In this document: positions 1,690 to 47,902 of the stretch, one piece after another | How the letters are laid out: each line of letters opens with the position of its first letter | How positions within the stretch are numbered: position 1 is the first letter of the stretch | Program-made: the position numbers and the translations under genes | DNA from: Eledone cirrhosa | Taxonomy: Eukaryota | Direction of reading: 5' to 3' | Assembly (NCBI GenBank): GCA_964016885.1 | Contig: OZ024757.1 | Coordinates: forward strand, 30,628,001 to 30,692,000 | Length of the DNA: 64,000 nt | Notes under the pieces: model-generated | What the model was told of the DNA's origin: nothing | The model's input: only the letters and a program-made list of their open reading frames with translations | Database searches by the model: none

Positions 1690-4123
1690 TACTCTTCAAT
1701 GCGACTGTTTGTCTTGTACGTCTAATTTCAGATTTGAAATCAAAAATATTAATAAATCTCTAAATCGATATAGAATGTATTTTTACAAATTTAGTTTGCA
1801 TGCTGTTTTAGGGAGAAAGTCATAGAAACCGATTCTGAAGTTATATTTTTATAGCTTAACCAAAATAATTTTTTTAAAAATCTCTGCTACCTTGATAAGC
1901 TTTTTGTGTGGATGTAGGTCTCTGAAGTTGCATTTTTTCTTTTTTCTTTTATTTTTTTTTTTGTATTTTACTTTTGCTCTTGAAACATGATCACCTTTTT
2001 ATTATTATTCCTTAGCTTAGGTGTTTTGCATTTTCAGATGAGTTGGCTATATCAATTCTTTAATATATTGAATCAATTACATTGTGGAATAGTCATTTTA
2101 ACCATTCAAAAACACGCGCACACAAAAAAAAAAAAAAGGTGTTATATTTCAAGATTTTCATCTATTTAAATGTGTCGGGTTTTTGTCGCACATTCTTTGC
2201 AACCTGGTCACTGACACAACTTTCACTGTAAAATTTTTGACTTACAGTGAGAATGCTAGTGACCACTTTGCAGAAAAGTGCAATGACAATTTTGACACCA
2301 CTGAATATATGGAAAGCAAACGCAATAGTTTTGTGTGTTTTTCTCACTGTCTAAAATGACTCTTCCATCATGTAATTGCTTCAGTTTCAAGGCATATGAA
2401 GTCACTTTACTTGTAACACAAGTGCAACTCGTATATTTTGAATATTCTATTAGAAATATATTTCTATGTCATCTCGCCCCCCTCCCCTACATAAATGATC
2501 AGATGTATACATGCCACTACGTCTTCTTGCAGTAATGACTGTGAAAAAATGTAATGGCAAAGTAGAGTAGAGTTCCAGATTTTACTATTCTTTATCAAAT
2601 TGGGGAAACTGTTATAAACTTGAAATTGTTTAAAATAAACATTGGGTAGATATGGGTTCAATTCCTATTCGTTTCAAACTTTTTTTTAATTTCCTCGTGA
2701 GTGAATACACTCTTTGTATTATTAGCATGTAAACTTGTTTTACATAAATCAATAATTTATTCTCTCATATGTCATTTTGCTGTGTATATATATAAAAAAA
2801 AAATCAATCAATTTGTTTCAATGATGCAAATTGATTTGGAATGCGTTTTTAAAATTTACGACCACCCAAATTAAATTTAGTTTATTTTTTTTTATCCCCT
2901 TCCCAAGTATTGATGATGGTAGCATTGCGACCTACAATATTATTTTAAATCTTAGAATTTTTTTTGTCTCTGTCAACAGATATTTTGTTCCGTATGATTT
3001 TTTTAAAAATATATATATAATATAAATTTCTGTATTGTGAATATCATGAGATATCACATTTAATGTGTCTTATACTGGATAAAACTTAATAAAATTTCAT
3101 TATTCATTGAAGATATAGTATGAAGACAAAAGTGCAGCAGTGTTCTCCATGATACATTTCATTGAATACTCTGTGTGCTGGCTTTCGAAAAAGGAAGAAA
3201 AATTGTATATAGGGGGGTTACCAAAAAAGAAAATGAAAAAACCGAACAAGAATACAAAACACCCACGTGTTTGATTAAATGGTTGAAATGTAAATGTTAT
3301 ATTTAGGACGATTATTTATTGAACTAATCAATTTTATATTATTCCTAAATATTTGTCGAACATAATTTGCAAATCTTACGTTTTCGTATTGTTTATAGAA
3401 TTCAATTTGATTAACATTACAATTCTGTTGCTGCTGCTATTATTATTATTACTACTACTACTACTTGATTTTAACATTTACTATAAGCGTTGATATTGCT
3501 CAAGTTTGTCATAGAGATAATACCGAAAGATATTTGGGAAATATAATGTATTCATTTTGATACTGAGTGCTTTTTGTTGTTGTTGTTTTGTTGTTGTTGT
3601 TGCTGTTGTTTAAACACTCTTCAAGCGTGAAGTATAAATGATACTGTTTGGTTTAAAATACGATTTATGCTTCAGATTCTAACTTAATGTTTGAAGGGAA
3701 GTTAATAATATTGTATAATAAATAGCTAAAGGAATTTGACAAGTTCTAGAACTGTTCTCGTGTTTTTATTAAGTCTGGATCTCTGATGACACGTCTATTG
3801 TTTTTAGTCCTTTAAAAACTACTTTACATTTCAACAATTTAATATTAGATGTCAGGCTTGTGGATTTTCCTTTCCTCTCTACCCTTCTGTGCACAATATT
3901 TATAAGGGACCATGCTGTATTTGATCGCTACTCATATGGAGAACACTGAAGCAATATTATATTGAGAAAGTTTTTTTTTTGTACTGTCTATATGTTTTCT
4001 TGAATTTTCCCAGGAATCCTCTGATATAATTTTCTTTTTTTTTTTTTTTTTTTTATCTTCTCCCCAATGGAGGAACATACATATTACCTGGAAGTTCTTG
4101 ATTGACTGCGATACATTTTCAAG

Positions 4124-5050
4124 ATGGAGATGGACAACAAGCGTACCAACCTGATAATTAATTACATCCCACAAACTCTTACTGATGAAGAGTTTCGTTC
4201 TATGTTTCTAAGCATTGGTCCCATCAAATCTGCTAAAATAGTGAGAGACAAAGCCACTGGCTATAGCTATGGTTTTGGTTTTGTTGATTATGAGAATGTC
4301 GAGGATGCTCAGCGAGCAATGCAAACATTGAATGGACTTCAGATGCAGAATAAAACCATTAAAGTTGCTTTAGCGAGGCCTGGTGGTGAGGAGATCAAAG
4401 GGGCTAATTTATATGTTAGAAATCTTCCTAGGCATTACCAGCAGATGGACTTGGAACGTCTTTTTCAGCAATTTGGAACAATTATACAGTCAAGAGTTTT
4501 GACAGACCAGGCTACTGGTGTGTCAAAAGGTGTTGGTTTTGTTCTGTTTGATCAGAAGAAGCAAGCTGAGGAAGCAATAAACCAGATAACTGGCACAGTT
4601 CCTGCTGGTGGTACAGAAGCTCTACTTATTAAATTTGCTGATGACAATGCAAAGAAGGTACGTCCCCCTGCAATGCCCTACATCAATACTGCTCCATGCT
4701 TCCCAGCACCTGGTCCAATGCGAAGTCCTGGCAATAGGTTCCGTTATAATCCGGTTACAGGCAATTACTCAACACCTAACTCTGGTTTGAGCCTCTCCCA
4801 GGGAGGATATGTTATTTTTGTATACAACATTGGAGCCAGTTCTTGTGAAAAAACGTTGTGGCAATTATTTTCTCCCTTTGGAACAGTCCAGAAAGTGAAC
4901 ATTATGAGGGATCATCAGAAGGGACAATCTAAAAATTATGGTTTTGTTACAATGACCAATCTTCAAGAGGCTCAGAATGCAATTGCACGACTTAATGGCT
5001 ATGATTATGCTGGTTGTGGTCGACCTCTACAAGTGAAGTTCAAGAACTAG
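4124..5050 (+). CDS. elav: ELAV/Hu/Sxl-family RNA-binding protein A, 3 RRMs, 308 aa, intronless CDS
   Basis: RRM1 TNLIINYIPQ...GYSYGFGFVDY; linker KTIKVALARPGGEEIKGANLYV; RRM2 SKGVGFVLF; hinge RFRYNP; RRM3 IFVYNI..LWQLFSPFG..YGFVTM..LNGY..LQVKFKN. Good start context (AAGATGG). Exact subfamily needs a phylogeny. Confidence 0.95.
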   Translation: MEMDNKRTNLIINYIPQTLTDEEFRSMFLSIGPIKSAKIVRDKATGYSYGFGFVDYENVEDAQRAMQTLNGLQMQNKTIKVALARPGGEEIKGANLYVRNLPRHYQQMDLERLFQQFGTIIQSRVLTDQATGVSKGVGFVLFDQKKQAEEAINQITGTVPAGGTEALLIKFADDNAKKVRPPAMPYINTAPCFPAPGPMRSPGNRFRYNPVTGNYSTPNSGLSLSQGGYVIFVYNIGASSCEKTLWQLFSPFGTVQKVNIMRDHQKGQSKNYGFVTMTNLQEAQNAIARLNGYDYAGCGRPLQVKFKN

Positions 5051-10886: not shown

Positions 10887-11849
10887 TTATTTGTTTTTAA
10901 AAGAAACTTGGAGAGGACCCCAACCGCGATAGCGATACCCATTGAGGCGTCCGACAGCGTTTTCTGCTTCGTGCTGGTTAGCCATCGTAACGAAGCCATA
11001 ACCTTTTGTCTTTTGCTGTACACGTACAATATTGGCCTTTTGCACAGTGCCAAAACCACAGAAAAGCTGGCCCAGGTCAGATTCATCCATATTGCCAGTA
11101 TTGTAGATAAACAACACTGGGCTGTTAGAGATGTCATTGCTGGGGTTGGGGTTGGGGTTAGGGGAGTAATTGACAGGCACCGGACTTGTAAATCGTTCAT
11201 TACGCATGAGCATAGGCGTGGAGAAAGTTTGTGGTTGTATGCTGTTGTTATTGTTCATGTATTGTTGTTGTTCATGTGGAGGGCGTGTTTTTTTAGAATT
11301 AGGAGCTTCGTTAGCAAATTTAACTATGATGGGCTCACTACCACCTGGAGGTATAGTTTGATTCAAGTCAGCAATGGCAGCTTCTGCCATCTTTTTCTGA
11401 TCATACAAAACAAAGCCAACTCCTTTAGATTGGTTGGTATTTGGATGTGTCATTATTCTGGAACGGATGATAATACCATAAGGTTCAAACAGCTTGACAA
11501 GGTCACTCTGAGCATAATGATTAGGTAAGTGGCTCACGTAAACATTGGCCCCTTTCACACCAAGTCCACTCGGCCTAGCGAGAGCCACTTTGATTCTTTT
11601 GTTCTCAATATGGAGTCCATTTAAAGTTTGAACTGCTCTTGCAGCATCCTCTGGGTGTTCATAATCAACAAACCCAAACCCATAGCTGTATCCTGTAGCT
11701 CTGTCTTGAATGATTTTAGATGACTTAATTGGCCCAATGGTCAGGAACATGGCTCGGAATTCTTCATTGGAAAGACTTTGTGGGATATAATTCACTATTA
11801 AATTGGTTAGATTGCCACCATTATCTTCGCAGTGATCGTCTGTTGCCAT
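10887..11849 (-). CDS. elav: ELAV/Hu/Sxl-family RNA-binding protein B, 3 RRMs, 320 aa, intronless CDS, divergent paralog of A
   Basis: TNLIVNYIPQSLSNEEFRAMFLTIGPIKS..ATGYSYGFGFVDY, KVALARP, SKGVGFVLYDQKK, KGYGFVTM, PLQVSFKNK; collinear with gene A. Start context GCCATGG; minus-strand splice acceptor at 11997-11998; candidate minus-strand AATAAA at 9937-9942. Confidence 0.95.
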   Translation of the reverse strand: MATDDHCEDNGGNLTNLIVNYIPQSLSNEEFRAMFLTIGPIKSSKIIQDRATGYSYGFGFVDYEHPEDAARAVQTLNGLHIENKRIKVALARPSGLGVKGANVYVSHLPNHYAQSDLVKLFEPYGIIIRSRIMTHPNTNQSKGVGFVLYDQKKMAEAAIADLNQTIPPGGSEPIIVKFANEAPNSKKTRPPHEQQQYMNNNNSIQPQTFSTPMLMRNERFTSPVPVNYSPNPNPNPSNDISNSPVLFIYNTGNMDESDLGQLFCGFGTVQKANIVRVQQKTKGYGFVTMANQHEAENAVGRLNGYRYRGWGPLQVSFKNK

Positions 11850-11857
11850 GGCAACAG
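11840..11857. promoter_or_regulatory. Perfect 18-bp palindrome containing the RFX X-box consensus, overlapping the ELAV-B start codon
   Basis: CTGTTGCCATGGCAACAG is its own reverse complement; GTTGCCATGGCAAC is the optimal RFX site. Function is inferred. Confidence 0.5.
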
Positions 11858-12261
11858 TACCTCGTCTGTCATAACAGCTCCAACACAGTTATTTTGTTAG
11901 CAGTTGCAACAGTTATTGCTAACAGTTGCAAAGCAGGGACTTTTTCTTTCCCAACTCCAACACAGGTATCAACAGTTGTGCAGGGACCTTTTCTCCCTAG
12001 AAAACGAAAAGAAAAAACATTTTAATTCAAAAATACACATAATTATAAATAAAATTGATGTGGTTCGTTTTTCGAAATCAACCAAACTAACAACACCTGT
12101 AGAACTCCAGAAGCACACAAGTGTCTTGACAATACTCGAAAAGATTACACAGAACATTGTCAACATTCCACTTATACTTCTATCTCGATCCATCCACAAG
12201 AAATAATAAACTTGTTATAAATGTGCCAGGTGCACTATTATGTATCTGTCAGTTTAAGATT

Positions 12262-17344: not shown

Positions 17345-17820
17345 CAAAGACGTGCATGTTTTAAAGTGGCCGGTGGCTGAGAGAAGAAAGGGGTTTACAT
17401 GTCAAAAGAGCACATGGTGGAGACTGAGCTGGGAAAGAACATGCCACAGACAAGAAAACGGCTAAAATTTTCAAACCCACGACATGGGCAAACATAATAG
17501 CATCTCAACCGACATGGCAAGCTCTGTAAAACAGAAACGAAGCTGTTGCCGAACGTTTCAACTACATCATTTTCACAAGTTTCGATACTGTTAAGACGAA
17601 ATAATAGGTTAAAGTCGACACATTTCGAAAAGAAAGCAGAAAATTGTACTAACCTTTAGATATAGATCAAATATGGCGGCTTCTACCTTAAACTAGATTC
17701 GGTGAAAGTCGGCAATTTTCGAGCGCCTAAAAAGTCATCCTCAATAAATTATTCTTCGACTGTTTCCGGACATTTCCGCCGAACAAAAGCATTCATTCGA
17801 ATTATTCCGATTACTCACGG
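17345..17820 (-). promoter_or_regulatory. Candidate CpG-enriched promoter with spliced non-coding leader exons (130-nt intron 17653-17524), possibly of ELAV-B
   Basis: Minus-strand AAG|GTTAGT donor and TTTCTGTTTTACAG acceptor; YY1-like ATATGGCGGC near 17671-17680 and ETS-like TTCCGG near 17764-17769. Confidence 0.4.
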
Positions 17821-20464
17821 ATGTTTTAGAAATAAATGAAAACAAAAAAAATTCGTCTGAGAGAAAGAGAAAAAGAAAGAATAAGAAGAGAGTTGTAGAA
17901 TAATGAAGAAAAAGATATAAACAGCTATAAAATACGAGAGAGAAAAGAATCAAAAAGATAGAATGAGAGAGGACAAAAGATGTGGCTATAGAATGAGAGG
18001 GAGTCAAAAGGATAGGGGATGGATAAAGAGTTGGAGTAATAAAAGAAGAGAGAGGGTGGACAAAGAGATAGAATAATAGAAGAGAATAAAATAAAAAAGA
18101 GGGCAAAAAATATAAAGTTAATAAAATAAAGAAAAAAAGTAAAAACAAATCGAGGGAAGCCGAAATGACAGAATAATAGAATGAGAGAGTAGGAGGATGA
18201 CAAATAGATAAAGTAAAATGAATGAGTGAGGAGGAGAACAAATAGGATATATTAATAGAACGAGAAGGGAGGGAGAGTTATTTCTGTAACAGGAAGTTGA
18301 GTAAGGGAGATTACTGTGTTAAACCTACGGTATCTTCCCTTTGTGTTGTTCTTGTTATTAAAAGAAAGAATCGTAGAATTTTTCAAGTTTGAACAAAGCA
18401 ATTGAGTTTAAGCAGTCGAAGCTTTGTGACACATTCTCACATGTTATAAATTTGACTGACAACTTTATACATATGTAAACAGCGATCTGTAAGCAAGTAT
18501 CTATACAAACATATAAAGATTCCCGCTCCGGGGAAACAGTATTGAGCCTCAAACTGTTACACCGAATTTTCGGGGAAGGGGTCTGAATTTAGAAATTTCA
18601 AATTGGCTAATTAAGGGATTCAGTAAGGGTCACATATTGGCAATTATTATCATTATGAGATATACATATTATCAAAGAAATAAAAACAACAATAATAATT
18701 GTTTAATTAATAACAAGGGCCGAAAGTCATTGAAGGATTTCAGGGAGTAAATCTGAGATATTAAGGGATATCGTTTTCATCCTATCCACCCTCCCCTGTA
18801 ATCAGTACACGATTTCAGGTGTAGTTTGGAATTAGTGTGCAATTATCGTTCTAACTACACAAATTTTCTCGGTTTGTTTCAATGTAATGAGGTAAACATT
18901 CTAGATGTAAATTTGTTTTAGCATAGTAAAAATTTATGATAATGGGTTTTATTACAATTGTATAAATTTACATAGAAGTATTCGAAATGTCTTATTATTG
19001 ATAAATGAAAATGTTTGTTTATTGCCTTCATCACAACAACGCCTCATAGATTTAATAGTGCGTCTTCTATAAGCACATCCATCTATTGAGGGGGAATAAT
19101 TTATAAACATAAAGACTTTGATCGCATTCGAATGAGAACATACACACACTAATATGCGTACATAAAGATACATACAAATATAAGCATACATAGATATACA
19201 CAAATATAAACACTCACACACACACATATACATACACAAGCACGAACTCGGTATTCAGACGAAACTAAGTGATATTGTGGCATTCGACAACGAGGCTAAA
19301 ACCAGAGACAAAAAAATCCTAATTCCCTCCCTTTGTTAAGGTGTCGTTAACGAAGGACCAAGTGCGAGAACGGATGTATTTGCACAAACCAAAGCATATT
19401 TATATTCTCCGTTGGTGACCGGAAACATCTAATTTCTAAATGTAATTCTTATCAACTCAGTTAACATAATCGGAGGATTTTGTATCCTATTTATATTTGA
19501 ATATGATTATCGACTCTATTTAGGTTATGTTATTAACACATCTACACCAACCTGCTAATTTCTCACGACTACTGTATGTCTCTTTAACAAATAGATTCGG
19601 AAACATCTTCTATATTCTCAGGTATGTACTGTTATGTACCCCAACTAAGATTTCTGATATTTTCGTTAATATTTATTTTATTCTATTAATGTGTGTTGCC
19701 AATTCAATCAGCAAAACCGATTTTGAGTCCCAAAAGAAATCATTTCACTTTTACGTGTTTCGAATGAGGTTTGTAGAAAAAATCTGCAGTTTACTTTGAA
19801 TTTAACCAGTTAAATTATTAACGTTGAAACTAAATAAAAACGGGCGGATCTTAAAATATACCCTTATGTAAACAATCTCAAAATACGAGGGGGAGATCAT
19901 CGTAATTCTGATACTATGCGAAAGAGGAGATTGAGATTTGTAGGCCATTGCAATCGTGCCTCAAAATGAAGTTGTGACTCCTTTAGTGATTTGGGAACCC
20001 AACATCTGCTAAAAGCAAAAGCGGTCGCAATCTCTCCTATGCTGATACCAATAGCCCTAGACACTAGTATTGTTGTTCGGGATCCAGGAAATGCAATGAG
20101 TGACAGACCTACGTGGAGATCTGTTACTGACGACGATGATGATGATTATGTAAACAATAACAAACGATTTATTTTCGAACATAATTTAACTTGCAGAAGT
20201 GAGGTGAATTAAGTTTACAGCAATCGGAAGAATTTTTATCCATTTATGTGACCAATTCCTTTTGAATAGACTTGAAAACTGCATATTCAAATTTATTACT
20301 GTGTATGTTAATGTGTATGAAGAAGCTGTTTTGTTGATCAAACAAGTGGAGCAGTCATCGTCGAAACCAACGGAGATCCATTCAATTTCATTCCACACGA
20401 AGCAAAATTTTTCTTAACAAAACTACGTTGATTTCTTCTTCCAGTTGATAGTTGACATGTAAAG

Positions 20465-20569
20465 ATGAGTGTCTCCCAGTTTAGTGAACCACAGGCAGGT
20501 GGTGACCTGGATCTCTACGATGATATTCTCCAGGAAGACTTTGATTGCCAGAAGGAATCTCTTGATGAG
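20465..20569 (+). CDS. CASP8AP2: FLASH/CASP8AP2-like copy A, coding exon 1 (LDLY motif)
   Basis: MSVSQFSEPQAGGDLDLYDDILQEDFDCQKESLDE, comparable to vertebrate FLASH LDLYEEIL; acceptor TTCCAG at 20444, donor GAG|GTAGGT, phase 0; same structure in copy B. Confidence 0.8.
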
Positions 20570-20619
20570 GTAGGTAAAACAATACACCCACTGCCCCAAG
20601 CTTGGAGGCTCATTAAGCC

Positions 20620-20858
20620 AGTGCTTATCCCAGTTAACTTAGCATTAAGCAACAAAGAGTATACTTCTCCTGGACAGGTCACCAGTTCATTGTACGGTTA
20701 ACTCCCAGCTACTGCTGGTACTCATTTTCAGCTGAGTATGCTGGAGCAACCTGAAGTGAAGTGTTTTGCGCAAAAGCACAATGCACCACCTAGGAATCGA
20801 AACCACAACATTATGATCATTAAGTCGACACTGTAACCACTAGGTTATACAGCTTCAC
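20620..20858 (-). mobile_element. tRNA-type SINE copy
   Basis: Reverse-strand B-box-like ggaatcgaaacc and taaccactagg head; similar to copies at 28250-28368, 28810-28960, 30550-30822, 44720-45045 and 55810-56090. Confidence 0.65.
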
Positions 20859-20939
20859 AAAGGTAAAACAATCATATAACAGTACAAACACTAATTTCGT
20901 TTGTAGATGTCTTAACAGTGTGTCTGAGAGAATATATTA

Positions 20940-21270
20940 CATCCATTTTACAGAGTGGACTGTGCTCTTTATTCTGGCACAAGTACTACCACCTTACAGG
21001 GTTGACTGTGCTTTTATTATGGCACTAGCATGATCACTTTACAGGGTTGACTGGGTGCTCTTTATTGTGGCATCAGCACTACCACTTTATAGGGTGGGCT
21101 GGGTGTATTTATCGTGGCATCAGCACTACCATTTTACAGGGTGAACTGGGTGTATTTATTGTGGGGCCAGTACTTTCATTTTACAAGGTGGATTGGGTGC
21201 TTTTATTGAGGCACCACAGCACTACCACCACCTTACAGGGTGGACTGCGTGCTTTTATTGTGGCACTACC
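20940..21270 (+). repeat. 48-bp minisatellite, about 7 degenerate units (intron 1 of FLASH A)
   Basis: Recurring accactttacagggtggactgggtgcttttattgtggcac unit, same family as 60063-60945. Confidence 0.85.
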
Positions 21271-21364
21271 ACTGCCTCTATATTCCTTGAAATCCCCAAG
21301 ATAGTTACAGATGAAATGTATTTGATCACAGGTCTGCTATGTCAAAGTTGACCTGGGGCTAAAT

Positions 21365-21470
21365 AATTGTTTCTACTTTAGGCACAAGGCCAGCAATTAT
21401 CCAGTGCATTACTGGTACTTTATTTTATCGACCCCGTAAGGATGAAAGGCAAAGTCAACCTCGGCGGGAT
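21365..21470 (-). mobile_element. SINE fragment, second family
   Basis: Reverse complement of cccgccgaggttgactttgcctttcatccttacggggtcgataaaataaagtaccag, seen at 29.9, 33.9, 34.1, 55.2 and 58.3 kb. Confidence 0.8.
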
Positions 21471-21665
21471 AACAGCCTGTGATCCCTTCTCACCACCCAG
21501 TCCTCTGACCACAAAATAATAACAGCCTGTTATCCCTTACTGCCACGCAGTCTCTATTACCAGTCCACATCATTACAATCTCCTCTTTCCTATATAGCCA
21601 TGTTTTTGATTCTCTGGCTACTTATCTAAACACTTTAATGAGAAATATATACTTTATTTCTTTAG

Positions 21666-21856
21666 TTACAACAGAAATACAAGGAAGCTATACAGAAGAT
21701 CGCTATTTTGGAAACTACTGTGAAAGAGCGTACATTGTCTCTTGAATCATTGGAGAAGAAAAACATATACTTACAGAAGAATATATCAATGTTGTACAAA
21801 ACTGCATGCACAGAAATCAAGAGAAAAAATGATATTATTCAGTCTTTAAGAGAGCA
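21666..21856 (+). CDS. CASP8AP2: FLASH-like copy A, coding exon 2 (coiled coil / Lsm11-binding segment)
   Basis: TTTAG acceptor, CA|GTAAGT donor, 191 nt; LQQKYKEAIQKIAILETTVKERTLSLESLEKKNIYLQKNISMLYKTACTEIKRKNDIIQSLREQ resembles vertebrate FLASH [23 protein letters not shown] (recalled sequence). Not in the ORF track. Confidence 0.85.
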
Positions 21857-21919
21857 GTAAGTTTTTGGTCTATTTATCTTATCATAAACATTTTTATAGA
21901 TGCAGGCATGGCTGTGTGT

Positions 21920-22112
21920 AGCATTTACATTACTCCATATTTACTATTGTATTTTCGTAGTAAAGGCTTTATCTCACATAATATCGAATGAGATTTTGAT
22001 ATTATTTATTTTGAGAACAATACGTTAACATCAGTATCAGTGTCCACTTTGAACAGAAAGAGGTGAGAGAATTCTGGCTGGATACAGCGAGTTTTAATGC
22101 TAAAGGGTTAAG
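21920..22112. mobile_element. TTAA-MITE copy in intron 2 of FLASH A
   Basis: tagcatttacattactc ... aatgctaaagggTTAA; left terminus eroded. Confidence 0.75.
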
Positions 22113-22192
22113 AAGTTTGGTTTGCAGCTACCTGGTCTGAAGTTGTATCCGACTTCATGACATCTTGTGATATGATTTGGTACTCAGTCTTT

Positions 22193-22257
<65 letters not shown>

Positions 22258-22765
22258 AATTATGGATGGATATCAGGAGGTAGATACAGTTAAAAAAGAT
22301 AGAGTATAGACATCTTTATTTTATATGGAAATAACTTATACAAGACTAGAACTGTTTCATTGATATGAAATCATCAAGAAAGGACTTTCCTGATGATTTC
22401 ATACAAAATTGTTTGTATAAAATTTTAGTTTGTGCTAATAATAAATATTTGCTTTACAGTTTTATAAATACTGTTAATATATTTATATAATACTTAATCT
22501 ACTTATCACTTTACATTTAATATTGCTATTGCAAGCAACGATATTTGTTTATGTCTCACATAAACGTTAGTTCAGCAGTTAGATGTATGAAGATTTGTAC
22601 CTTATTTTTAAAACAAGGCACTATTGGCATCAAGAAGGGCATCTGACAGTAGAATTCTGCCTCAAGCACTTGGGTCCAACCCATGCCAGCATTGCAGGTA
22701 TGCAAACCCTTTTTTATAAAATCATTTTCCTTATATATATATTTGATTTTTGTTTCTCTTTCCAG

Positions 22766-22871
22766 ATTAGACACCCATAAAAAAGAAAACTATGTGAAAA
22801 AATCGCAATCTGGATACTCTAAATGGAATGGTGATTCTCAGAGAAACATCAAATCCTCTCGAAATTATTGA
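22766..22871 (+). CDS. CASP8AP2: FLASH-like copy A, exon 3 start, ending in an early TGA (133-aa spliced product)
   Basis: TTTCCAG acceptor, phase 2 compatible with exon 2; LDTHKKENYVKKSQSGYSKWNGDSQRNIKSSRNY*; homologous to the start of copy B exon 3. Confidence 0.7.
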
Positions 22872-23466
22872 CGTAACCCTTATAAAAAAAAAGGACATCC
22901 CTTTCTCCCCCCCCCATCTTATTTTGACAATATTTATTCACCATTTCATTCTGCGTAAGCTTTTAGTCACTCAAGTATTAAACATAAAAAAAGTAATTTG
23001 CATCAACAAAATTGAAAGCTAACTCTTATTCTACTGCTACTAATGTGCTGGCTGCAAAGTTGATGCCTTCTGATTCACTATGATCTCCTATATTTGAAAA
23101 AAATCACAGGTTCTGTACAGACTGTCTAAGAATTTGTGACATCATTTGCTACAAAATCAAAATGAAGTCATGTCAGATATGAAACAGAAGAAGAAAATAT
23201 GATTGATAAAAGTTCATGATAAAGATTTTCTCTGTACAACATCTGTTCCCTGAGTGTACTGGTCTGGGAGAATCTGTTAGTACAAATATAACTGACCTGC
23301 TTGCACTCATGATCTTATAAAACTTATATAAGAAAGTAAATATTTTGATTCAAGAAACATTAAACAGGACACAAGAACAACAATCGCAGTGATCAAATAT
23401 TTCCAAAAATAAAAGTGAAAAGAAATATAGAAAGTATTCTGATGTTGAAACTAATAACTCAAGAGA

Positions 23467-24513
23467 GTGGATGTAGTTGAAGCAGTGAAGATGTCAACTC
23501 AACTGTCAGCAAAATCTGCAGGATCTCATGCAAACGGGACTAAACCTTCTCCAACTTCTGCTGTTGCTGCTGGTGTTGATAAATTTTCTCCCAGTGATAA
23601 ACATTGCAGTAAAATGTATGATCCAGTGTTAGCTTCCTCACTAGAAGTACCAACTAAATGTGAGAGAAATCTTTCCACACCTGTTGTTCCACAAACGTGT
23701 AAAACCTCAGTAGCATTGAATAGTCAGGAAGACATAGTTATTAACTGCTTTGGTAGATCTAATCCAGAAGATTCTCATTCTCCTATAATTATTCGTTGTT
23801 TTTCTAACAGTATGACACATTCAGAGCTAGCTGAATCAACAAGCAGCAAAATTTCTGATTATGGTGATTCTACACCAACAAAGGAAACAATTGTTCGTAA
23901 ACTGTTCTCACCAAGTAAGCCTGATTATGATTTATCGGTGGAAAATCAAATCCGAGATGATATGGGAGCAAAGAATCACAGTCTTGACTTTCTCAATGAA
24001 ATGAAGAAGAAATTATCGCAGGAAATTGCTGCTCATAACAGAAGACAACAAGATGAAGATTGTTCTTCAGATCTAACACAATTAAATGATATCTGTGAGA
24101 ATGATAAAGATACATATTGTAGTAATGATAGTGTGAGAGACGATGAGAATTTTCTGAAAACATATTCTCCTCATGCACAGACTGATTCAGCTACAAGTAC
24201 TCGGCAGTCTGAAGGTGATTGCGTAGACTTAGAAGAAGGGGAGATTGTAAGTGATGATGATGATGATGATGATGATGGTGATGAGGATGATGATAAGGAG
24301 GAGGAGGAGGAGGTGGTGGTGGAAGATGGTGAGAGAGAAGAAACTTCCAAGGAGGAATTTTCCGATAACATTAAACATGAAAGTAAACACACTTCAAAAC
24401 AAACTTCCAAAAGAAGGAAGATATCAGGGTGTAAGACATTGTCTAAAATTAACAATAAACAGAATGACAACTCTTCAGGACATGAAAACAAAAAACGAAG
24501 GGTTGACCGGTGA
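23467..24513 (+). pseudogene. CASP8AP2: Disconnected C-terminal reading frame of FLASH-like copy A
   Basis: Nearly identical to copy B 37850-38836, including DLEEGEIVSD and KKRRVDR*; separated from the N-terminus by a stop and about 600 bp of degenerate sequence. Could still be reached by unrecognised splicing. Confidence 0.6.
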
Positions 24514-24769
24514 GGACGGAGTGCTGAGCTAATGTTATTTTTTAACGATATATTATTTAAGTAAAACTGAAATTTATCTTCCTCTTCCTCCTGTTCATGA
24601 TATTGTATATGTCTGTTTATATTATTCACATGTCTTTAACAACAATATATTAAAATATACTTCAATATGTTCAGGTATGCATCATAATTATGAAAGTAAA
24701 AATTAATTTTGTTGCTGGACACGTAAAGCATGATAAAATATGATATATGTGTGTGTGTGTGTTTAAGTC

Positions 24770-25680
24770 GAGAGTTAGGAGCGGAGGAATGGTTTGTTAG
24801 AATAGTGATGACAATGTATGTGTGAGCGTATACAGTCGTTAAAGATGGAAAAAGGGGGGAACAGTGATGAGTTTGAGGTGAAAGTAGCGGTGCATCAAGG
24901 GTCAGTAATAAGCCCACTATTATTTGTAGTTGTGATGGAGGTACTACCCTGAAGCGTGAAGGATGGTTTACCGTGGGAGGTGGTATGCATAAATGACCTG
25001 GTATTAATATCAGTAAGTATGGATGGACCGAGGGAGAAGATGAATAGGTGAAAGGAATGTATGGAGGTATGAAGGTAAATATTGGAAACAACAGAAAGGT
25101 GGGGTGGCCGTGTACTAGAAGGGTGTTGGAATGAACTCCAGTAAATGTATGACATGCACTGGGTGGTTACATTGAAAATGCAGTGGTGTGAAGAGATTAT
25201 TAAATAATGTGGCAGCTACATTTAAGTGTAAAATGTGTAAGGAGGGAGCTACAGATTGAGACGATGTTGAACTGTATTTTGGTAATGGTGTAAAAACATT
25301 TTGTTGCGTTGGAGACATTGAATGGAGAAGATGGATCAGACTCTGTGACAGAATCTAGAGGGAGATGTGCGTGGAAGAAGTTCTGGGAACTGTGTGGTCT
25401 GCTAATGTGAAGGGGAGTATCTCTGAAACTGAAGAGAAAGGAGGATCAGACTCTGTGACAGAATGTAGAGGGAGATGTGCATGGAAGAAGTTCTGGGAAC
25501 TGTGTGATGTGCTAATGTGGAGGGGGAATGTGATCAGACTCCGTGACAGAATCTAGAAGATGTGCATGGAAGAAGTTCTGGGAACTGTGGTGTGCTAATG
25601 TGGAGGGGAGTGTCTCTGAAACTGAAGAGAATGGTGTATGCTGCATGTGTGAGAAGCACCATAATTTATGGGAGGAATTT
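24770..25680 (+). mobile_element. Degenerate RTE-like LINE ORF2 fragment
   Basis: VHQGSVISPLLFVVVME reverse-transcriptase motif near 24890-24940, Cys-rich segment, and triplicated CAWKKFWEL segment at 25330-25610. Confidence 0.8.
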
Positions 25681-26240: not shown

Positions 26241-28249
26241 ATTAGACAGTAATATTTCCTAAATTTGTTGCTGGTGCAAAAACTATTCACACCCTGTTTA
26301 CTTACACTAGTCACCGTGCATGGCTTCTCACAGCAGAGATCATGAATCAATGTCTAACGAAACACAGCAATTATTTTGCTCATAATTGTTGATATGAAGA
26401 AATCAGAAATAAATGACATTGTTAATGATGAAAGACTGTCTTTTCTTTTGTTGTTGCGTTTATCTAGACATAAATTTTTACTAAAGAAATATACTATCTA
26501 CAAACAGTGTTAACCACACAATTTATTTCCCATAAAATTACACACACAAAACATTGGATGGGGTGGATTAAAATGTTTTTCTTTAATTTTTTTATTTTGC
26601 TTGCTTGTTTGTTTGTTTGTTTTTCATTTTCTGAAAATAAAAAAAAATTCTATATTTCAATTTACTTAACATAATGAGTGTAAAACGAACTCAGTTCCTA
26701 AGCTGAGCTGTACAAAGAGATGATGCACACAAAAATACCAAACAGCTTTGGATAACTCCCCAACACCACACCATCACCACCATATACATTCGCAAGCAGA
26801 CGATAATTATAAACTGTAGGGCAGAAGATGATGGTGCCCCCCCCTCCTCCTCCTAGTAACTCTCACCACCCTTCCACCTCACCTCACACGCTCTTTTCAG
26901 GCAATAACGTGCACTATCGTACGACAATTTCCATTCCCCGATCTATTTCTCTTCAAATGTTTTTATGTATACATATTACACTGTCTTGTGTTTAGAAGTT
27001 GTTATTTTCATGCATAAAAGTGGTTGTATTGCTTGTTTGTTTTTTTTTTGTTTTGTTTTTAGTTTGTTTCTTTTGTTGTTGTTCTTTTTTTACGCCCAAT
27101 AAAAAAATAAATTCCGTCGGAACGTATCTTATATCATAATATAAAAATAGGTTTCGAGTTGCGACAAGATTTTCAGGGACGCAATACTTTCGTAACGCGG
27201 GGAATTCCTCGTCTAGACTGTGATCTCATCCTACATACACGTACATACAGATATACATATACACACGCGTACATAAACACATATACAAGTATATATATAT
27301 GTACATAAGCATACATAAACACACATACAAGTATATATATAATCCTTATCGAGCCCTCTTCCGATTTTAATCTTCATAATTATTATTACTATATATATAT
27401 ATATATATACACACACATAGACACGTACATATACACAAACAAATAAGCATACGTATACACGGGTATTCAGACACGCATACAAATATTTGCACACGTGTAC
27501 ACACATATATGTATATGTGTGTACACGTGTGCAAATATTTCACACATAAATAGACACATGAAAATATAAGTATACACACGCACCCCCCATTCACCCAGGC
27601 AGATACGGTATTGAGTCGAAACTAAGCGATATCGTAACATTTCGACAACGAGGCTAAATTAAGCCAAAAACAAAACAGAAAAACCCGCGTAATTTCGAAG
27701 TCAAACCACAAAGGCCGGAATGGATTGTATTCATGATAGAATGTGTTTTTATATTTTTAAAATTTCATTCTAGACAATTCAATTAACATTATCGGATAGT
27801 TTATCTCTCTATCTTACTTGCAAGTTTTATCTTAACATTCCAATGTAACTACCCGTTAATTGTAAATATATTATTTGATATAAATTAAATATCAATTGAG
27901 TAGATTATCGCCACCACATCAACCTCGTCTCAAACCCTTAGTATATTTGAATACCAAATATATTTGGAAACAACCTATATTTTTCAGGTATGTATTATTG
28001 TCTCAACTAAGACTTCCGATCATGTTTTTTGTTTTAGTGTTTATATTACTGTATCAATTCACAAGTTCTGTTCGACTGTGTCAAACAGGATATGTACGTG
28101 TGTGTCCGAGTATGTCTGAAGCTTGATCTGTTGAAGGGGACCTCTTCGACAAAATCCCAAACCTCATTCGCTTGCCAAGTGAGGTGGGCCTCGTCAAATC
28201 AGACCAAGTCTTTCCATTGCTGCTACTATCCACCGGTCGCAACTCCTGG

Positions 28250-31161: not shown

Positions 31162-31922
31162 TTAACCCTTTAGCATTTATATTACTCTATATATACTATT
31201 GTATTTTTGTGGTAAAGGCTTTATCTCACATAATATTGGATCTATGAGATTTTGATATTAATCTTGAGAACAATACCTTCCCATAAGTATGAGTAGCCAG
31301 TTATAGCCGATTCGAACAGAAAGAAGTGAGAATTCTTGCTGGACATGGCTGGTTTAAATGCTAAAGGGTTAACGGACAATGGCCATTGACACCTACCCCA
31401 CCTCATAGGGCTCCTTCCTTGGACAAGCTGCTTTTTTAACATAATTTAACCCTTTAAGCATTTAAACTGGCCATATATCCGGCCAGCATTCTCTCACTTC
31501 CTTCTGTTAAAACCAGCTGTAACGGGCCACTCATACTGATGTTAAGGTATTGTTCTCAAAATAAATAATATCAAAATCTCATAGATTCAATATTATGTGA
31601 AGTAAAACCATTACCATGAAAATACAATAATAAATATAGAGTAATGTAAATGCTACAGGGTTTACATGCTGACGTGAGGTGCATTAAGTTTATAGCAATT
31701 TATATCAGTTTTGAAGAAATTTTGTCCATTTAACCCTTTAGTATTTACATTACTCTATATATACTATTATATTTTCACCTATCTCACATAATATCGAATC
31801 TATGAGATTTTGATATATATTTTGATAACAATACCGTAACATCAGTATGAGTGGCGTGTTAAAGCCAGTTTGAACAGAAAGAGGTGAGAGAATTCTGGCC
31901 GGTTTAAATACTAAAGGGTTAA
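31162..31922. mobile_element. Three piggyBac-type MITEs of about 190-210 bp in alternating orientation (31166-31368, 31450-31660, 31734-31918)
   Basis: TTAA-CCCTTTAGCATTTA ... TAAATGCTAAAGGG-TTAA: TTAA duplication and CCC/GGG termini; empty sites are visible in the paralogous copy A region at 20180-20255. Confidence 0.85.
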
Positions 31923-32130
31923 GTGGCAAATGCCTTTTGGACAGACTTAAACTCTGCATATTCAAATTTGTTAATGTGTATGAAGAGGCTGTTCTGTTAA
32001 TCAAACAACTGCAACAGTCATCATTAAAACCAATGGAGATCCATTACATTTCATTGCACACAAAGCTAAATTATTCTTAACAACACCACATTGATTTCTT
32101 CTTCTTCCAGTTGATAGTTGACATGTAAAG

Positions 32131-32235
32131 ATGAGTGTCTCTCAGTTTAGTGAACCACAGACAAGTGGTGACCTAGATCTCTATGATGATATTCTCCAGG
32201 AAGACTTGGTTTGTCAGAAGGAATCTCTTGATGAG
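32131..32235 (+). CDS. CASP8AP2: FLASH/CASP8AP2-like copy B, coding exon 1 (LDLY motif)
   Basis: MSVSQFSEPQTSGDLDLYDDILQEDLVCQKESLDE; acceptor at 32110, donor GAG|GTAGGT; 105 coding nt as in copy A. Confidence 0.85.
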
Positions 32236-32451
32236 GTAGGTAAAACAATACATTTCTTAAACATATTTTTACTTTTTTGTTCCCCCCAAACTCTGATACT
32301 CATCAGACCAGTTCTTATCCCAGTTTCCTCACCTTTAAATGCACAGTGCAAGTGATAGTTTGGTTCAGAAGTTTGCTTCATAAATACATGTTTCTTTTTT
32401 AAGCTTGTTTATACTGAGTAATACCTTGAGCAAATATCTTTTACTAGATCT

Positions 32452-32905: not shown

Positions 32906-33096
32906 TTGCAACAGCAATACAAGGAAGCTATCCAGAAGATTGCTACTTTGGAAAATACTCTGAAAGACCACACTGTGACTATGGATACACTGGAGAAGAA
33001 AAACACTTACTTACAAAAGAATATATGGAGTCTCTACAAATCTGCACATGCAGAAATAGAAAGACAAAATGCTGATATTCACACTTTAAGAGAACA
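32906..33096 (+). CDS. CASP8AP2: FLASH-like copy B, coding exon 2 (coiled coil)
   Basis: TTTCAG acceptor, CA|GTAAGT donor, 191 nt; LQQQYKEAIQKIATLENTLKDHTVTMDTLEKKNTYLQKNIWSLYKSAHAEIERQNADIHTLREQ. Confidence 0.85.
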
Positions 33097-34872: not shown

Positions 34873-37800
34873 ATTAGACTCATGTAATAAAGAAACTTTC
34901 ATGAAGAAACCACAGTTAGAATATTCTAAATGGAATGGTGACCCACAAAATCCACAGTCAGAATATTCTAAACACAATGGTGACCCACAAAATCCACAGT
35001 TAGAATATTCTAAATGGAATGGTGACCCTCAAAATCCACTGTCAGAATATTCTAAATGGAATGGTGACCCTCAAAATCCACAATTGGAATATTCTAAATG
35101 GCATGGTGACCCTCAAAAACCACAGATGGAATATTCTAAATGGAATGGTGACTCTCAAAAACCACAGTTGGAATATTCTAAACACAATGGTGAACCTCAA
35201 AATCCAGAATTGGAATATTCTAAACGGAATGGTGACCCTCAAAATCCACAATTGGAATATTCTAAATGGAATGGTGACTCTCAAAATCCACAATTGGAAT
35301 ATTTTAAATATCATGGTGATTCTCAAAAACCACAGTCTGAACATTTTAAACACAATAGTGACCCTCAAAAACCACAGTTGGAATATTCTAAACACAATGG
35401 TGACCCTCAAAATCCACAATTGGAATATTCTAAACGGAATGGTGACCCTCAAAAACCACAGTTGGAATATTCTAAACACAATGGTGACCCTGAAAATCCA
35501 CAATTGGAATATTCGAAATGGAACGCTGACCCTCAAAAACCACAGTTGGAATATTCTAAATGGAATGATGACCTTCAAAATTCACAGTTGGAACATTCTA
35601 AACACAATGGTGACCCTCAAAAACCACAGTTGGAATATTCTAAACACAATGGTGACCCTCAAAAACCACAGTTGGAATATTCTAAACACAATGGTGACCC
35701 TCAAAAACCACAGTTGGAATATTCTAAACACAGTGGTAACCCTCAAAAACCACAGTTGGAATATTCTAAACACAATGGTGACCCTCAAAAACCACAGATG
35801 GAATATTCTAAACACAATGGTAACCCTCAAAAACCACAGTTGGAATATTCTAAATACAATGGTAACCCTCAAAAACCACAGTTGGAATATTCTAAACACA
35901 ATGGTGACCCTAAAAAACCACAGATGGAATATTCTAAACACAGTGGTAACCCTCAAAAACCACAGTTGGAATATTCTAAACACAATGGTGACCCTCAAAA
36001 ACCACCGATGGAATATTCTAAACACAATGGTAACCCTCAAAAACCACAGTTGGAATATTCTAAACACAATGGTAACCCTCAAAAACCACAGTTGGAATAT
36101 TCTAAACACAATGGTGACCCTCAAAAACCACAGTTGGAATATTCTAAATGGAATGATGACCTTCAAAATTCACAGTTGGAATATTCTAAACACAATGGTG
36201 ACCCTAAAAAACCACAGATGGAATATTCTAAATGGAATGGTGACCCTCAAAAACCACAGATGGAATATTCTAAATGGAATGGTGACCCTCAAAAACCACA
36301 GATGGAATATTCTAAATGGAATGGTGACCCTCAAAAACCACAGTTGGAATATTCTAAACACAATGGTGACCCTCAAAAACCACAGATGGAATATTCTAAA
36401 CACAATGGTAACCCTCAAAAACCACAGTTGGAATATTCTAAACACAATGGTAACCCTCAAAAACCACAGTTGGAATATTCTAAACACAATGGTGACCCTC
36501 AAAAACCACAGTTGGAATATTCTAAATGGAATGATGACCTTCAAAATTCACAGTTGGAATATTCTAAACACAATGGTGACCCTAAAAAACCACAGATGGA
36601 ATATTCTAAATGGAATGGTGACCCTCAAAAACCACAGATGGAATATTCTAAATGGAATGGTGACCCTCAAAAACCACAGATGGAATATTCTAAATGGAAT
36701 GGTGACCCTCAAAAACCACAGTTGGAATATTCTAAACACAATGGTGACCCTCAAAAACCACAGATGGAATATTCTAAACGGAATGGTGACCCTCAAAAAC
36801 CACAGTTGGAACATTTTAAACGGAATAGTGATTCTCACAAATCACAGGCGGTACATTCTAAATCAAATGGTGAGTCTCGAAAACCACGGTTGGAATATTC
36901 TAAATGGAATGACCCTCAAAAACCACGGTTGGAATATTCTAAACGGAATGGTGACCCTCAAAAACCACAGTCGGAATATTCTAAATGGAATGACCCTCAA
37001 AAACCACATATGGAATATTCTAAACGGAATGGTGACCCTCAAAAACCACAGTCCGAATATTCTAAATGGAATGACCCTCAAAAACCACGGTTGGAATATT
37101 CTAAACGGAATGGTGACCCTCAAAAACCACAGTCCGAATATTCTAAATCAAATGTTGATATACAAAAACCACAGTTAAAATATTCTAAACGGAACAGTGA
37201 CTCTCGAAAACCACAGTTGGAACATTTTAAACGCAATGGTGAGTCTCGAAAACCGCAGTCGGAATATTATAACCGGAACAGTGACTCTAAAAGGCCACAT
37301 TCAGAATATTCTAAATGGAACGGTGACTCTCAGAGAAATATCAAACCTCATCAAAGAGATTCCAGGCGAAATGAAAGAAAAGATTCTAAAGAAAACAAAA
37401 GGAAAAGTTCCAAATATTGTGATATCGAAAATGCAAAATATTCTGATAAATCCAGATCTAGATATTCTAGCTCAAGGGAGCAGAGATATGGAGAAGAAAG
37501 ATATGAGAGAAAACTTTCATGTCATCGAGATTTGCAAAATTCTGAAGCAAAAAGAAACAGATCTTTAGAAACAAAAGCAAGACATTTCACAAAGAAGAGT
37601 AATTCTTCTAGTACAAATGTAGAAAATTCCTCAAATGAACACAGGAAGTTAGATACAAAACAAAATGGTCGCCAAAAGCCATCTTCATCCTCACAAAAAT
37701 CATATGTGAGTTATGTGCAAACAAAATGTCGTAGTGCTCCACTGAGAGAGAAGCAAAGTGTACATAATGATTGCTATGAGATTGGTAATACAACAAGACA

Positions 37801-38836
37801 TCATTCTAAATTAATTGATTGTCAGCAGTCTGTTATTGAAATATTGAAAATGTCAACTCAACTGTCAGCAAAATCTGCAGGATCTCATGCAAACGGGACT
37901 AAACCTTCTCCAACTTCTGCTGTTGCTGCTGGTGTTGATAAATTTTCTCCCAGTGATAAACATTGCAGTAAAATGTATGATCCAGTGTTAGCTTCCTCAC
38001 TAGAAGTACCAACTAAATGTGAGAGAAATCTTTCCTCACCTGTTGTTCCACAAACATGTAAAACCTCAGTATCATTGAATAGTCAGGAAGACATAGTTAT
38101 TAACTGCTTTGGTAGATCTAATCCAGAAGATTCTCATTCTCCTATAATTATTCGTTGTTTTTCTAACAGTATGACAAATTCAGAGCTAGCTGAATCACCG
38201 AGCAGCAAAATTTCTGATTATGGTGATTCTACACCAACAAAGGAAACAATTGTTCGTAAACTGTTCTCACCAAGTAAGCCTGATTATGATTTATCGGTGG
38301 AAAATCAAATCCTAGATGACATTGGAGCAAAGAATCACAGTCTTGACTTTCTCAATGAAATGAAGAAGAAATTATCGCAGGAAATTGCTGCTCATAACAG
38401 AAGACAACAAGATGAAGATTGTTCTTCAGATCTAACACAATTAAATGATATCTGTGAGAATGATAAAGATACATATTGTAGTAATGATAGTGTGAGAGAC
38501 GATGAGAATTTTCTGAAAACATATTCTCCTCATGCACAGACTGATTCAGCTACAAGTACTCGGCAGTCTCAAGGTGATTGCGTAGACTTAGAAGAAGGGG
38601 AGATTGTAAGTGATGATGATGAAAAGGAGGAGGAGGTGGTGGTGGAAGATGGTGAGAGAGAAGAAACTTCCAAGGGGGAATTCTCCGATAACATTAAACA
38701 TGAAAGTAAACACACTTCAAAACAAACTTCCAAAAGAAGGAAGATATCAGGGTGTAAGACATTGTCTAAAATTAACAATAAACAGAATGACAACTCTTCA
38801 GGACATAAAAACAAAAAACGAAGGGTTGACCGGTGA
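34873..38836 (+). CDS. CASP8AP2: FLASH-like copy B, giant exon 3 (tandem 14-aa repeat, basic Ser/Lys/Arg region, DLEEGEIVSD motif, acidic tract, KKRR tail); spliced product about 1419 aa
   Basis: TTTCTAG acceptor at 34872, in frame with exon 2; 3964 nt open. The end is either TGA at 38834-38836 or a CG|GTGAGG donor at 38833. Confidence 0.8.
34907..37333 (+). repeat. Coding minisatellite: 58 units (55 x 42 bp + 3 x 39 bp), consensus KPQLEYSK(H/W/R)NGDPQ
   Basis: Unit aaaccacagttggaatattctaaacacaatggtgaccctcaa; span 2427 bp = 55x42 + 3x39; no frameshift or stop. Confidence 0.95.
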
Positions 38837-39064
38837 GGATGGAGTGCTGAGCTAATGTTATTTTTTAACGATATATTATTTAAGTAAAACTGAAATTTAT
38901 CTTCCTCTTCCTCCTGTTCATGATATTGTATATGTCTGTTTATATTATTCCCATGTCTTTAATAAGCACATATCAAAATATAACACACAAGCACATATAT
39001 ATATTTGTGCGTTTATATATGTACATATATTTGTATGTATATATGTATGTGTACATTTCTTCTT

Positions 39065-47008: not shown

Positions 47009-47625
47009 TCAGCATGTACCCATGGGAGGTCGGGTACCCTGTATTACTGCGTGACGCCAGAAGTCACGGTCGTGTGTCATTGACTTTGAGAGGTGTAGTT
47101 GGGTAAGGTCGGCTTTTATCACCTCATCCCAAGTCATCTTGGGTCTCCCCACTCCGCGGTTTCCATCAACTTCTAGTGCTCTGCACCTTTTTATGCAGCT
47201 GTCATCCTTCATACGCATCACATGTCCATACCAGCGTAACCGCCTCTCCTGCACGCAGCATTTGATTCCTCTTATGCTCAGTCTCTCTCTCAATTCATTT
47301 ATGCTTTGTCGTTCACGTATATTACTGTTACACATCCATCGGAGCATGCAGGCTTCGTTTCTCTCTAATCTACGTAAGTCTTCCACCTTCAGCGCCCAGG
47401 TCTCACTACCATGCAACATCGCTGTTCGGATACACGCATCATACAGTCTGCCTTTCATTCTGAGGGAGAAGCCTTTTGCAGCTAGCAGTGGTAGTAGTTC
47501 CCTAAACTTCTTCCATCCCGTTCTTACCCTAGTTATTGTACTTTCTGAGCACCCACCTCCGTTGCTAATTCGGTCACCTAGGTAGCAGAAGCTGTCTACT
47601 GTTTCTACAGGGCCCTCCCAGAGAT
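47009..47625 (-). mobile_element. RTE-like LINE 3' fragment with the frame still open
   Basis: VDSFCYLGDRISNGGGC..WKKFRELLPLL..MLHGSETW..LRWYGHVMRM..GRPKMTWDEVI; the 3' tail continues towards 46720 and recurs at 34290-34620. Confidence 0.9.
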
Positions 47626-47691
47626 TGTGTGTGTATATGTATATATATATATATATGTGTATATGTATATATATATATATATGTGTATATG

Positions 47692-47743
<52 letters not shown>

Positions 47744-47902
47744 CAATTAAATTCATATGTAGATATGTCACTATCTGTAAACCAATTATTGTATTTTATC
47801 TGACGATAGCTACCAAAATACTGGTACCCTTGAAATATATATAATAAAATAAATATGGTTTTATAAAGATAGTTTCCACTTATTAATATTATTGATATAT
47901 AT

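Follow-up and report, generated by a model that had tools for sequence, protein, structure and literature searches.

FLASH, the product of CASP8AP2, is required to finish histone messenger RNAs, and although it usually measures 800–2400 aa its processing module is tiny. The window analyzed here, a stretch of 64,000 nucleotides from the octopod Eledone cirrhosa, carries two tandem FLASH-like genes, one of which, copy A, ends after 133 codons, whereas its neighbor, copy B, stays open for 1419. The question raised by this locus is whether copy A is a working short FLASH or a long gene in decay, and what its long neighbor does if the former is the case.

Gene structure and tandem duplication

The coding exons of copy A and the features around them are as follows.

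19250..19622, + strand: putative promoter of copy A or its first, non-coding exon; the GT donor at its end is common to copy B
20445..20569, + strand: first coding exon of copy A, with an acceptor before 20445 and the ATG at 20465
20507–20518, + strand: LDLY motif of copy A, equivalent to human LDLY 55–58
21666..21856, + strand: exon 2 of copy A, a coiled coil equivalent to human FLASH 76–139 that includes the Lsm11-binding segment 100–139
22766..22871, + strand: coding part of the last exon of copy A, 34 basic, poorly conserved residues followed by the TGA at 22869–22871

Joining 20465–20569, 21666–21856 and 22766–22871 yields 402 nt that encode 133 aa and the TGA, with zero internal stops and GT/AG borders at both introns, exactly as a preliminary description made from the letters alone had proposed. 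The same description held that copy A encodes almost exactly the minimal histone-processing module; the module is indeed there, at residues ~12–99, but it is followed by 34 residues of low conservation. The LDLY motif, of the LDLY/LDIY type that recruits the cleavage complex in FLASH, occupies residues 15–18 and aligns with human 55–58. Exon 2 retains N114, I115, S116, L118, T121, A122, E125, R128, K129, I133 and L136 (human numbering) together with the coiled-coil core positions of the human alignment, and by itself matches PDB 6AOZ/6ANO at E-values of 0.007–0.008. A profile built from the human N-terminus and those of 118 non-octopod FLASH proteins gives residues 14–99 a score of 86.2 bits. 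On these sequence comparisons, the N-terminal module of copy A is homologous to human FLASH 51–139.

A viral coiled coil, the top PDB sequence match to exon 2 (E 0.0016), was set aside as generic coiled-coil likeness, the family profile pointing to FLASH. None of the five FLASH pieces scanned matched a Pfam family at the curated cut-off, and the central EEGEI (FARB) ARS2-binding motif of full-length FLASH is absent from the 133 aa of copy A. Predicted as a pair, exon 2 of copy A and exon 2 of copy B reached 0.60 against 0.00 for the best of three controls, on a scale where values of at most 0.60 held only 5 of 78 solved complexes and all four of the mismatches that passed; contacts agreed at 100% with pLDDT of at least 91. 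This weak signal probably stems from likeness to the solved dimer.

Copy B is built in the same way up to its last exon.

32131..32235, + strand: first coding exon of copy B, LDLY retained, 4 of 35 residues different from copy A
32906..33096, + strand: exon 2 of copy B, with S116W, T121S and K129Q (human numbering)
34873..38836, + strand: last coding exon of copy B, which is open for 1419 aa, with EEGEI at 38591–38605

The 23 of 64 exon-2 residues that differ between the copies comprise 12 with a positive BLOSUM62 score, 4 with zero and 7 with a negative one, in keeping with the earlier remark that many of these differences are conservative. The last exon of copy B is enlarged by 58 copies of a 42-nt (14-aa) unit at 34907–37332; the unit is rich in Ser, Lys, Trp, Asn and Pro and occurs as a single copy in A and in the Octopus proteins. 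The array also contains a second open frame, 35004–37178. The unique part of copy B is 45% identical over 199 aa to the long paralog of O. bimaculoides (E 1e-50). Upstream of the coding exons, 19152–19735 aligns with 27505–28110 ahead of copy B (372 of 534 columns, score 271 against 127 for the best shuffle), and the GT donor at 19623 is common to both copies; as the duplicated unit thus extends upstream and includes this donor, the event was a whole-gene tandem duplication. Exon 1 and its flanks (20244–20586 versus 31919–32252) are closer between A and B than exon 2 is, and the two copies share residues that are absent in Octopus. This region is likely an older conversion tract between them.

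Elsewhere in the window, two intronless, convergent open reading frames (4106–5050 on the + strand and 10887–11888 on the − strand) each carry three RRM_1 domains (E 3e-58 and 6e-51) and are presumably ELAV/Hu-like. A CpG-rich segment at 17640–17760 has a possible minus-strand donor near 17655 and what we take to be a YY1-like motif, and is a possible 5' end of a gene that is read divergently from copy A. Broken LINE-like remains, judged by eye from endonuclease- and reverse-transcriptase-like pieces of open frame, lie at 40759–43354 and 47009–47746.

The stop codon and the sequence beyond it

Four sequencing runs of one study (X1–X4), from two samples, cover the stretch and were mapped on 22270–25300. 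No run is on record as RNA; X1, X2 and X4, all from one sample, are DNA-like, and X3, from the second sample (88 million letters), was called RNA-like by its behavior. The TGA is present in the contigs of all four runs, DNA-like (22347–23520) as well as RNA-like (22766–24242), which disposes of the concern, raised in the preliminary description, that the stop might be an assembly error. The DNA contigs of X1, X2 and X4 cross intron and exon and show a sole variant, 22773 A>G in X2 and X4; both observed alleles consequently carry the TGA. The variant changes Thr102 to Ala between DNA runs of one sample and is likely heterozygosity.

X3 leaves the intron at 22474–22677 uncovered. Its contig of 2085 nt lands exactly on the exon-3 acceptor at 22766 and runs to 24242 with zero other letters and zero gaps. 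Ahead of exon 3 it has 587 letters, known by length only, from which we infer the exon 1–2–3 joints: exons 1 and 2 would account for 316 of them, and the remaining 271 fit the putative first exon and would place the start near 19352. The contig has the copy A letter at 10 of 10 A/B-diagnostic sites in 23491–24242 and, unlike the DNA contigs, is not interrupted at the A/B junction, which hints weakly at a lower abundance of B than of A in the X3 sample. Further X3 contigs span 24333–25232 and 25203–25300; the repeat between them and the long contig, 24243–24332, was skipped and is not bridged. Copy A is likely transcribed and spliced. Among the 15 of 17 rows listed, no X3 joint lies downstream of the TGA or bypasses it, so that splicing around the stop, the other concern raised at the outset, finds no echo there. 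Since the TGA likely sits in the last exon, junction-dependent nonsense-mediated decay (NMD) would not act and the transcript would escape it; NMD of the junction-independent kind could yet be provoked by a 3' UTR that measures 2.4 kb or more. The 3' UTR has three parts.

22872..23476, + strand: A-specific 3' UTR; each frame has 13–17 stops, and 11 ATGs occur up to 23490
23477..24659, + strand: copied piece of the 3' end of copy B within the 3' UTR of copy A, 95% identical to B 37836–38982 with gaps
24660..25300, + strand: further 3' UTR of copy A, in RNA-like contigs that stop short of the transcript end

The preliminary description had taken 22872–23466 for decayed coding sequence. A coding remnant is undetectable there: neither tblastn nor alignment of the DNA nor protein alignment that tolerates frameshifts detects homology of 22872–23476 to copy B or the long paralog of Octopus. 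Its DNA score was reached by 173 of 200 shuffles, and its frameshift-tolerant protein scores by 6 and 9 of 30, versus 0 of 30 for the control. Only the first ~12 codons after the stop align, and they do so with the C-terminus of the Octopus short protein. Descent of the segment from coding sequence is plausible.

The copied tail behind it has an open frame at 23458–24513, in which the ATG at 23491 opens 340 codons to 24513, out of frame with the 133-aa reading frame, and it carries an EEGEI motif of the ARS2-binding type at 24232–24246. The copied tract begins almost exactly at this ATG, which has an A at −3. Against copy B, 15 of 981 aligned coding nucleotides differ (dS 0.025, compared with 0.24 for exon 1 and 0.57 for exon 2); the substitutions are 10 nonsynonymous and 5 synonymous, and dN/dS is uninformative. 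As the tail is native to the long genes of Octopus (55–59% identity), it likely entered copy A, or was refreshed there, from copy B in recent time; the open tail would then be a side effect of gene conversion or of a partial second duplication, which is the likely origin. Assembly duplication was considered as the origin of the shared tail and rejected: the DNA contigs break at the tail edges, carry B letters in X4 and are deeper within the tail (25.9 versus 15.3, 13.6 versus 11.6 and 12.9 versus 7.7). No further FLASH exons and no SANT domain were found downstream of A or B.

Octopod counterparts, the Lsm11-binding segment and the role of copy A

A search with exon 2 returned, as two proteins among 25 candidates, short counterparts in other octopods: a 149-aa protein of O. 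vulgaris/O. sinensis (LOC115222870 isoform X2; XP_029649102.1, CAI9738220.1), to which exon 2 of copy A is 83% identical, and a 140-aa protein of Argonauta hians (GAB1606835.1), to which it is 72% identical. Both are annotated as uncharacterized or hypothetical, and the sequence resemblance makes them likely orthologs of copy A. The label "isoform X2" implies an X1, which the protein searches did not return for LOC115222870. A near-length profile search among 627 candidates found the same two short proteins only. The tail, used as query, found two proteins among 1234 candidates, an O. bimaculoides protein of 617 aa and an O. sinensis protein of 613 aa; O. vulgaris has long members of 627 and 557 aa. 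These long paralogs (613–627 aa in three species of Octopus) combine the same N-terminal module with a B-like end. O. vulgaris and O. sinensis possess both a short and a long gene, the O. vulgaris accessions being ~20 numbers apart and assigned to a contig of equal length. Weak searches yielded neither a short protein of O. bimaculoides nor a long one of Argonauta.

When 1.84 billion representatives were searched with a profile, 297 matched at E ≤ 0.001, of which two, the short and long octopod clusters, reached E ≤ 1e-30. Named matches of the octopod profile include CASP8AP2 of toad, snake and mammals (E 1e-10 to 1e-6) and a mussel protein of 3424 aa. An additional octopod FLASH of greater length was not found among these representatives, which are clustered at 50%, where one could hide. 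Past the module, copy A and the Octopus short protein are 57% identical over 47 aa, a match that goes on into the codons behind the TGA, and have a common Y.RN.Y.K pattern at the C-terminus. The TGA of copy A aligns with an Arg of the Octopus protein and comes 16 codons before the stop there. Conservation of the stop in related species, which had been suggested as a check, therefore does not extend to the exact TGA, which is lineage-specific; what is common is the short length (133, 140 and 149 aa). Trees of 11 rows leave the short and long clades unresolved, and species-specific residues are common to A and B, so that independent duplications are possible.

For conservation analysis, the best 150 of the 297 matches to the octopod-built profile were taken; of the 147 non-octopod sequences, 29 were dropped as partial or weak, and the remaining 118 were aligned with human 51–139, where 15 columns conserved at 85% or more were chosen from the references alone. 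Profile scores were 86.2 bits for copy A, 85.1 for the Argonauta and 84.4 for the Octopus short protein, 73.8 for copy B and 61.9–62.9 for the Octopus long proteins. At the 15 columns, all three short proteins have zero departures, whereas each of the four long proteins has three: S116W, T121S and K129Q in copy B, and S116L, E125T and R128G in the three Octopus long proteins, all within human 100–139. Only 6 of the 118 references depart at three or more of these columns. The changed positions are 88–100% conserved among the references, with T121, E125 and R128 invariant and K129 at 99%; copy A keeps 13 of the 13 columns of the Lsm11-binding segment (100–139) that are conserved at 85% or more. 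The Octopus long copies are close kin, and the pattern in the long copies thus counts as two events, not four. The long copies, too, keep LDLY, N114, I115, L118, Y119, A122, I133, L136 and the coiled-coil core.

Rates of change agree with this division, on the presumption that short is orthologous to short and long to long: in residues 71–99, 2 of 29 positions distinguish copy A from the short protein of Octopus, versus 14 and 15 of 29 for copy B against long proteins of Octopus (p 0.0008 and 0.0003 by Fisher's test), while residues 36–70 show no contrast (9 versus 12 of 35, p 0.6). Copy A is 93% identical to the Octopus and 86% to the Argonauta short protein in 71–99, compared with 74% and 60% in 36–70. 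The preliminary description had argued for selection on a truncated product from an intact 5' part followed by decay. That conclusion gains from the short counterparts, from the conservation of residues 71–99 and from the spliced RNA-like contig through the stop; the decay argument is weak alone, given that no remnant is detectable and that a near-intact copy of the B tail lies downstream.

Because the short copies keep, and the long copies alter, conserved residues of the Lsm11 segment, the short copy is likely the working U7 adaptor. On balance, we favor the view that copy A is an intact short FLASH (CASP8AP2) paralog, arisen by tandem duplication and with octopod counterparts, that probably acts as a U7 histone-processing adaptor, its long neighbor having probably ceded most of it. 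By analogy with human and fly FLASH, exon 2 would dimerize as a parallel coiled coil, the C-terminal half of which would hold the N-terminus of one Lsm11, and cleavage of histone pre-mRNA would depend on symplekin/CPSF100/CPSF73 brought in by the LDLY helix of exon 1. After the duplication, constraint on the Lsm11 segment would have stayed with the short copy, and everything past residue ~100–120 would have become dispensable there, so that the stop could drift among species.

Published work on human and fly FLASH is compatible with such a protein. Human FLASH 100–139 is the mapped Lsm11-binding segment (PMC5636114, PMC3884669); LDLY binds the cleavage complex, and a double mutation of L118 and residue 119 abolishes Lsm11 binding (PMC5636114). 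That the long copies, too, keep both of these positions and LDLY speaks against a loss of the role in them. Fly FLASH 1–178 is fully active in vitro, and flies are viable and fertile with the 1–733 protein, although it does not reach the histone locus body and processes with lower efficiency and some misprocessing (PMC4896052), so that a module-only protein can work. EEGEI is described as the ARS2-binding motif of FLASH (PMC9402713). It is found in most long references and in copy B; the Octopus long proteins have ESGEI or EKGEI at this place, so that a retained ARS2 role of the long copy is not secure.

More tentatively, octopods may have split FLASH over two tandem genes, such that the 133–149 aa protein does all U7-dependent processing, the long paralog lost Lsm11 binding separately in two lineages, and the short protein reaches the histone genes through coiled-coil pairing with the long one or works unconcentrated.

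It is unlikely that both copies process histone mRNA, with copy A functional but adding only redundancy or dosage, and with the substitutions of the long proteins tolerated or matched in octopod Lsm11. Such redundancy would account for the LDLY, Lsm11-segment and coiled-coil core positions that the long copies still hold, and for the 74 bits that copy B still scores with an open 1419-aa gene conserved with the Octopus long paralogs; it sits poorly with three changes per long protein at highly conserved columns, differing by lineage and with no counterpart in the short copies, and with an excess of rate confined to residues 71–99. Quite improbable is a regulator that, for want of a localization region, stays out of the histone locus body, binds the cleavage complex or U7 snRNP elsewhere and dampens or redirects processing. 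Copy A does lack any region beyond the module, and in the fly localization aids efficiency and partial FLASH proteins can be dominant negatives (PMC4896052); those, however, are without LDIY or the Lsm11 site, both of which copy A keeps, and the profile search, with its two clusters at E ≤ 1e-30, offers no better full-length octopod FLASH, which would leave a decoy without an obvious main actor.

We regard as highly improbable a longer or double product, made either by splicing past the TGA, which would fuse module and open tail, or by separate translation of the tail frame 23491–24513. The 340 open codons, the ATG at the edge of the copied tract and the EEGEI motif invite this reading, two GT sites precede the stop (22794 and 22831), and contigs drop rare forms. 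Yet the X3 contig is unbroken from 22766 to 24242, no such joint is seen among the 15 of 17 rows, and the 11 AG sites in 23400–23495 have pyrimidine fractions of 0.12–0.47, compared with 0.59–0.82 at five known acceptors; for the tail itself, 11 ATGs lie between, and at a dS of 0.025 its frame is open simply because the copy is recent. That copy A is a pseudogene, still transcribed but in decay from the 3' side, is scarcely credible: its stop is lineage-specific, 16 codons ahead of that of Octopus, and the sequence after it cannot be aligned to copy B, but residues 71–99 are better conserved than 36–70, dN/dS between A and B is 0.20 in exon 1 and 0.36 in exon 2, the splice sites are intact and short counterparts are annotated in two genera.

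Comparison with known FLASH systems

Octopods, with a natural gene reduced to the module, offer a ready test of how far an animal depends in vivo on the rest of FLASH and on its concentration in the histone locus body. The A/B pair amounts to a natural mutational scan, with S116, T121, E125, R128 and K129 as candidate residues of the Lsm11 interface, for which no single-residue tests were found in the FLASH literature covered; the interface has been seen by cryo-EM only at low resolution (PMC12774660). In addition, three database proteins labeled uncharacterized can now be named, and the long paralogs are mislabeled as SRRM5- or CWC22-like. A search for CASP8AP2 and octopus found no paper, and the wider literature had no relevant item among the matches listed (subscription papers and supplements being outside its scope); the literature covered did not yield a description of duplicated FLASH genes of which the short one retains the conserved Lsm11 segment and the long one loses it.

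Short FLASH-like proteins are predicted elsewhere. Among the references, 34 of 118 are at most 215 aa long, many of which may be fragments. Look-alike clusters in the Atlas, which may also be fragments, include one of 133 aa (mostly arthropod, 0.95) and one of 100 aa (mostly oomycete, 0.94). Protein P0013 and the Atlas clusters, one of them mostly oomycete, are stand-alone predicted proteins of ~100 aa that resemble the FLASH N-terminus. Judged from such sequences, module-only FLASH may exist outside animals, and predicted proteins of this kind lower the uniqueness of the octopod case. The SANT/Myb NPAT-binding domain of vertebrates was matched neither by A nor by B, nor by the long proteins of Octopus or any of the six frames of the 64-kb window; the named mussel, beetle and thrips proteins are likewise unmatched, and the absence is therefore not special to octopods.

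Short FLASH is known as engineered fragments (PMC7432317, PMC12774660), including an engineered miniFLASH (PMC12305476), and as a mammalian isoform of 190 aa, whose name MiniFLASH and activity reportedly go back to Yang et al. in 2014.

Human FLASH 51–139 (PDB 6ANO, 6AOZ, 6AP0) has LDLY followed by a coiled coil with N-I-S-x-L-x-x-T-A-x-x-E-I-x-R-K, and aligns with copy A without gaps; the human module, however, is the first tenth of a protein of ~2000 aa or an engineered fragment, whereas in copy A it is nearly the whole gene product. Copy A has a single LDLY, and vertebrates and the fly have a second one upstream. The Drosophila 1–178 and 1–733 proteins are laboratory constructs, the latter with measurable misprocessing, in contrast to copy A, a natural gene found across octopod genera beside a long paralog. 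Within octopods, the Octopus and Argonauta short proteins differ from copy A in the position of the stop. The mammalian 190-aa FLASH isoform, known from a sequence record, is like copy A a natural short FLASH that retains the processing module; it arises by splicing of the module onto the SANT/Myb (NPAT-binding) part of the C-terminus, whereas copy A is a separate paralog without that part.
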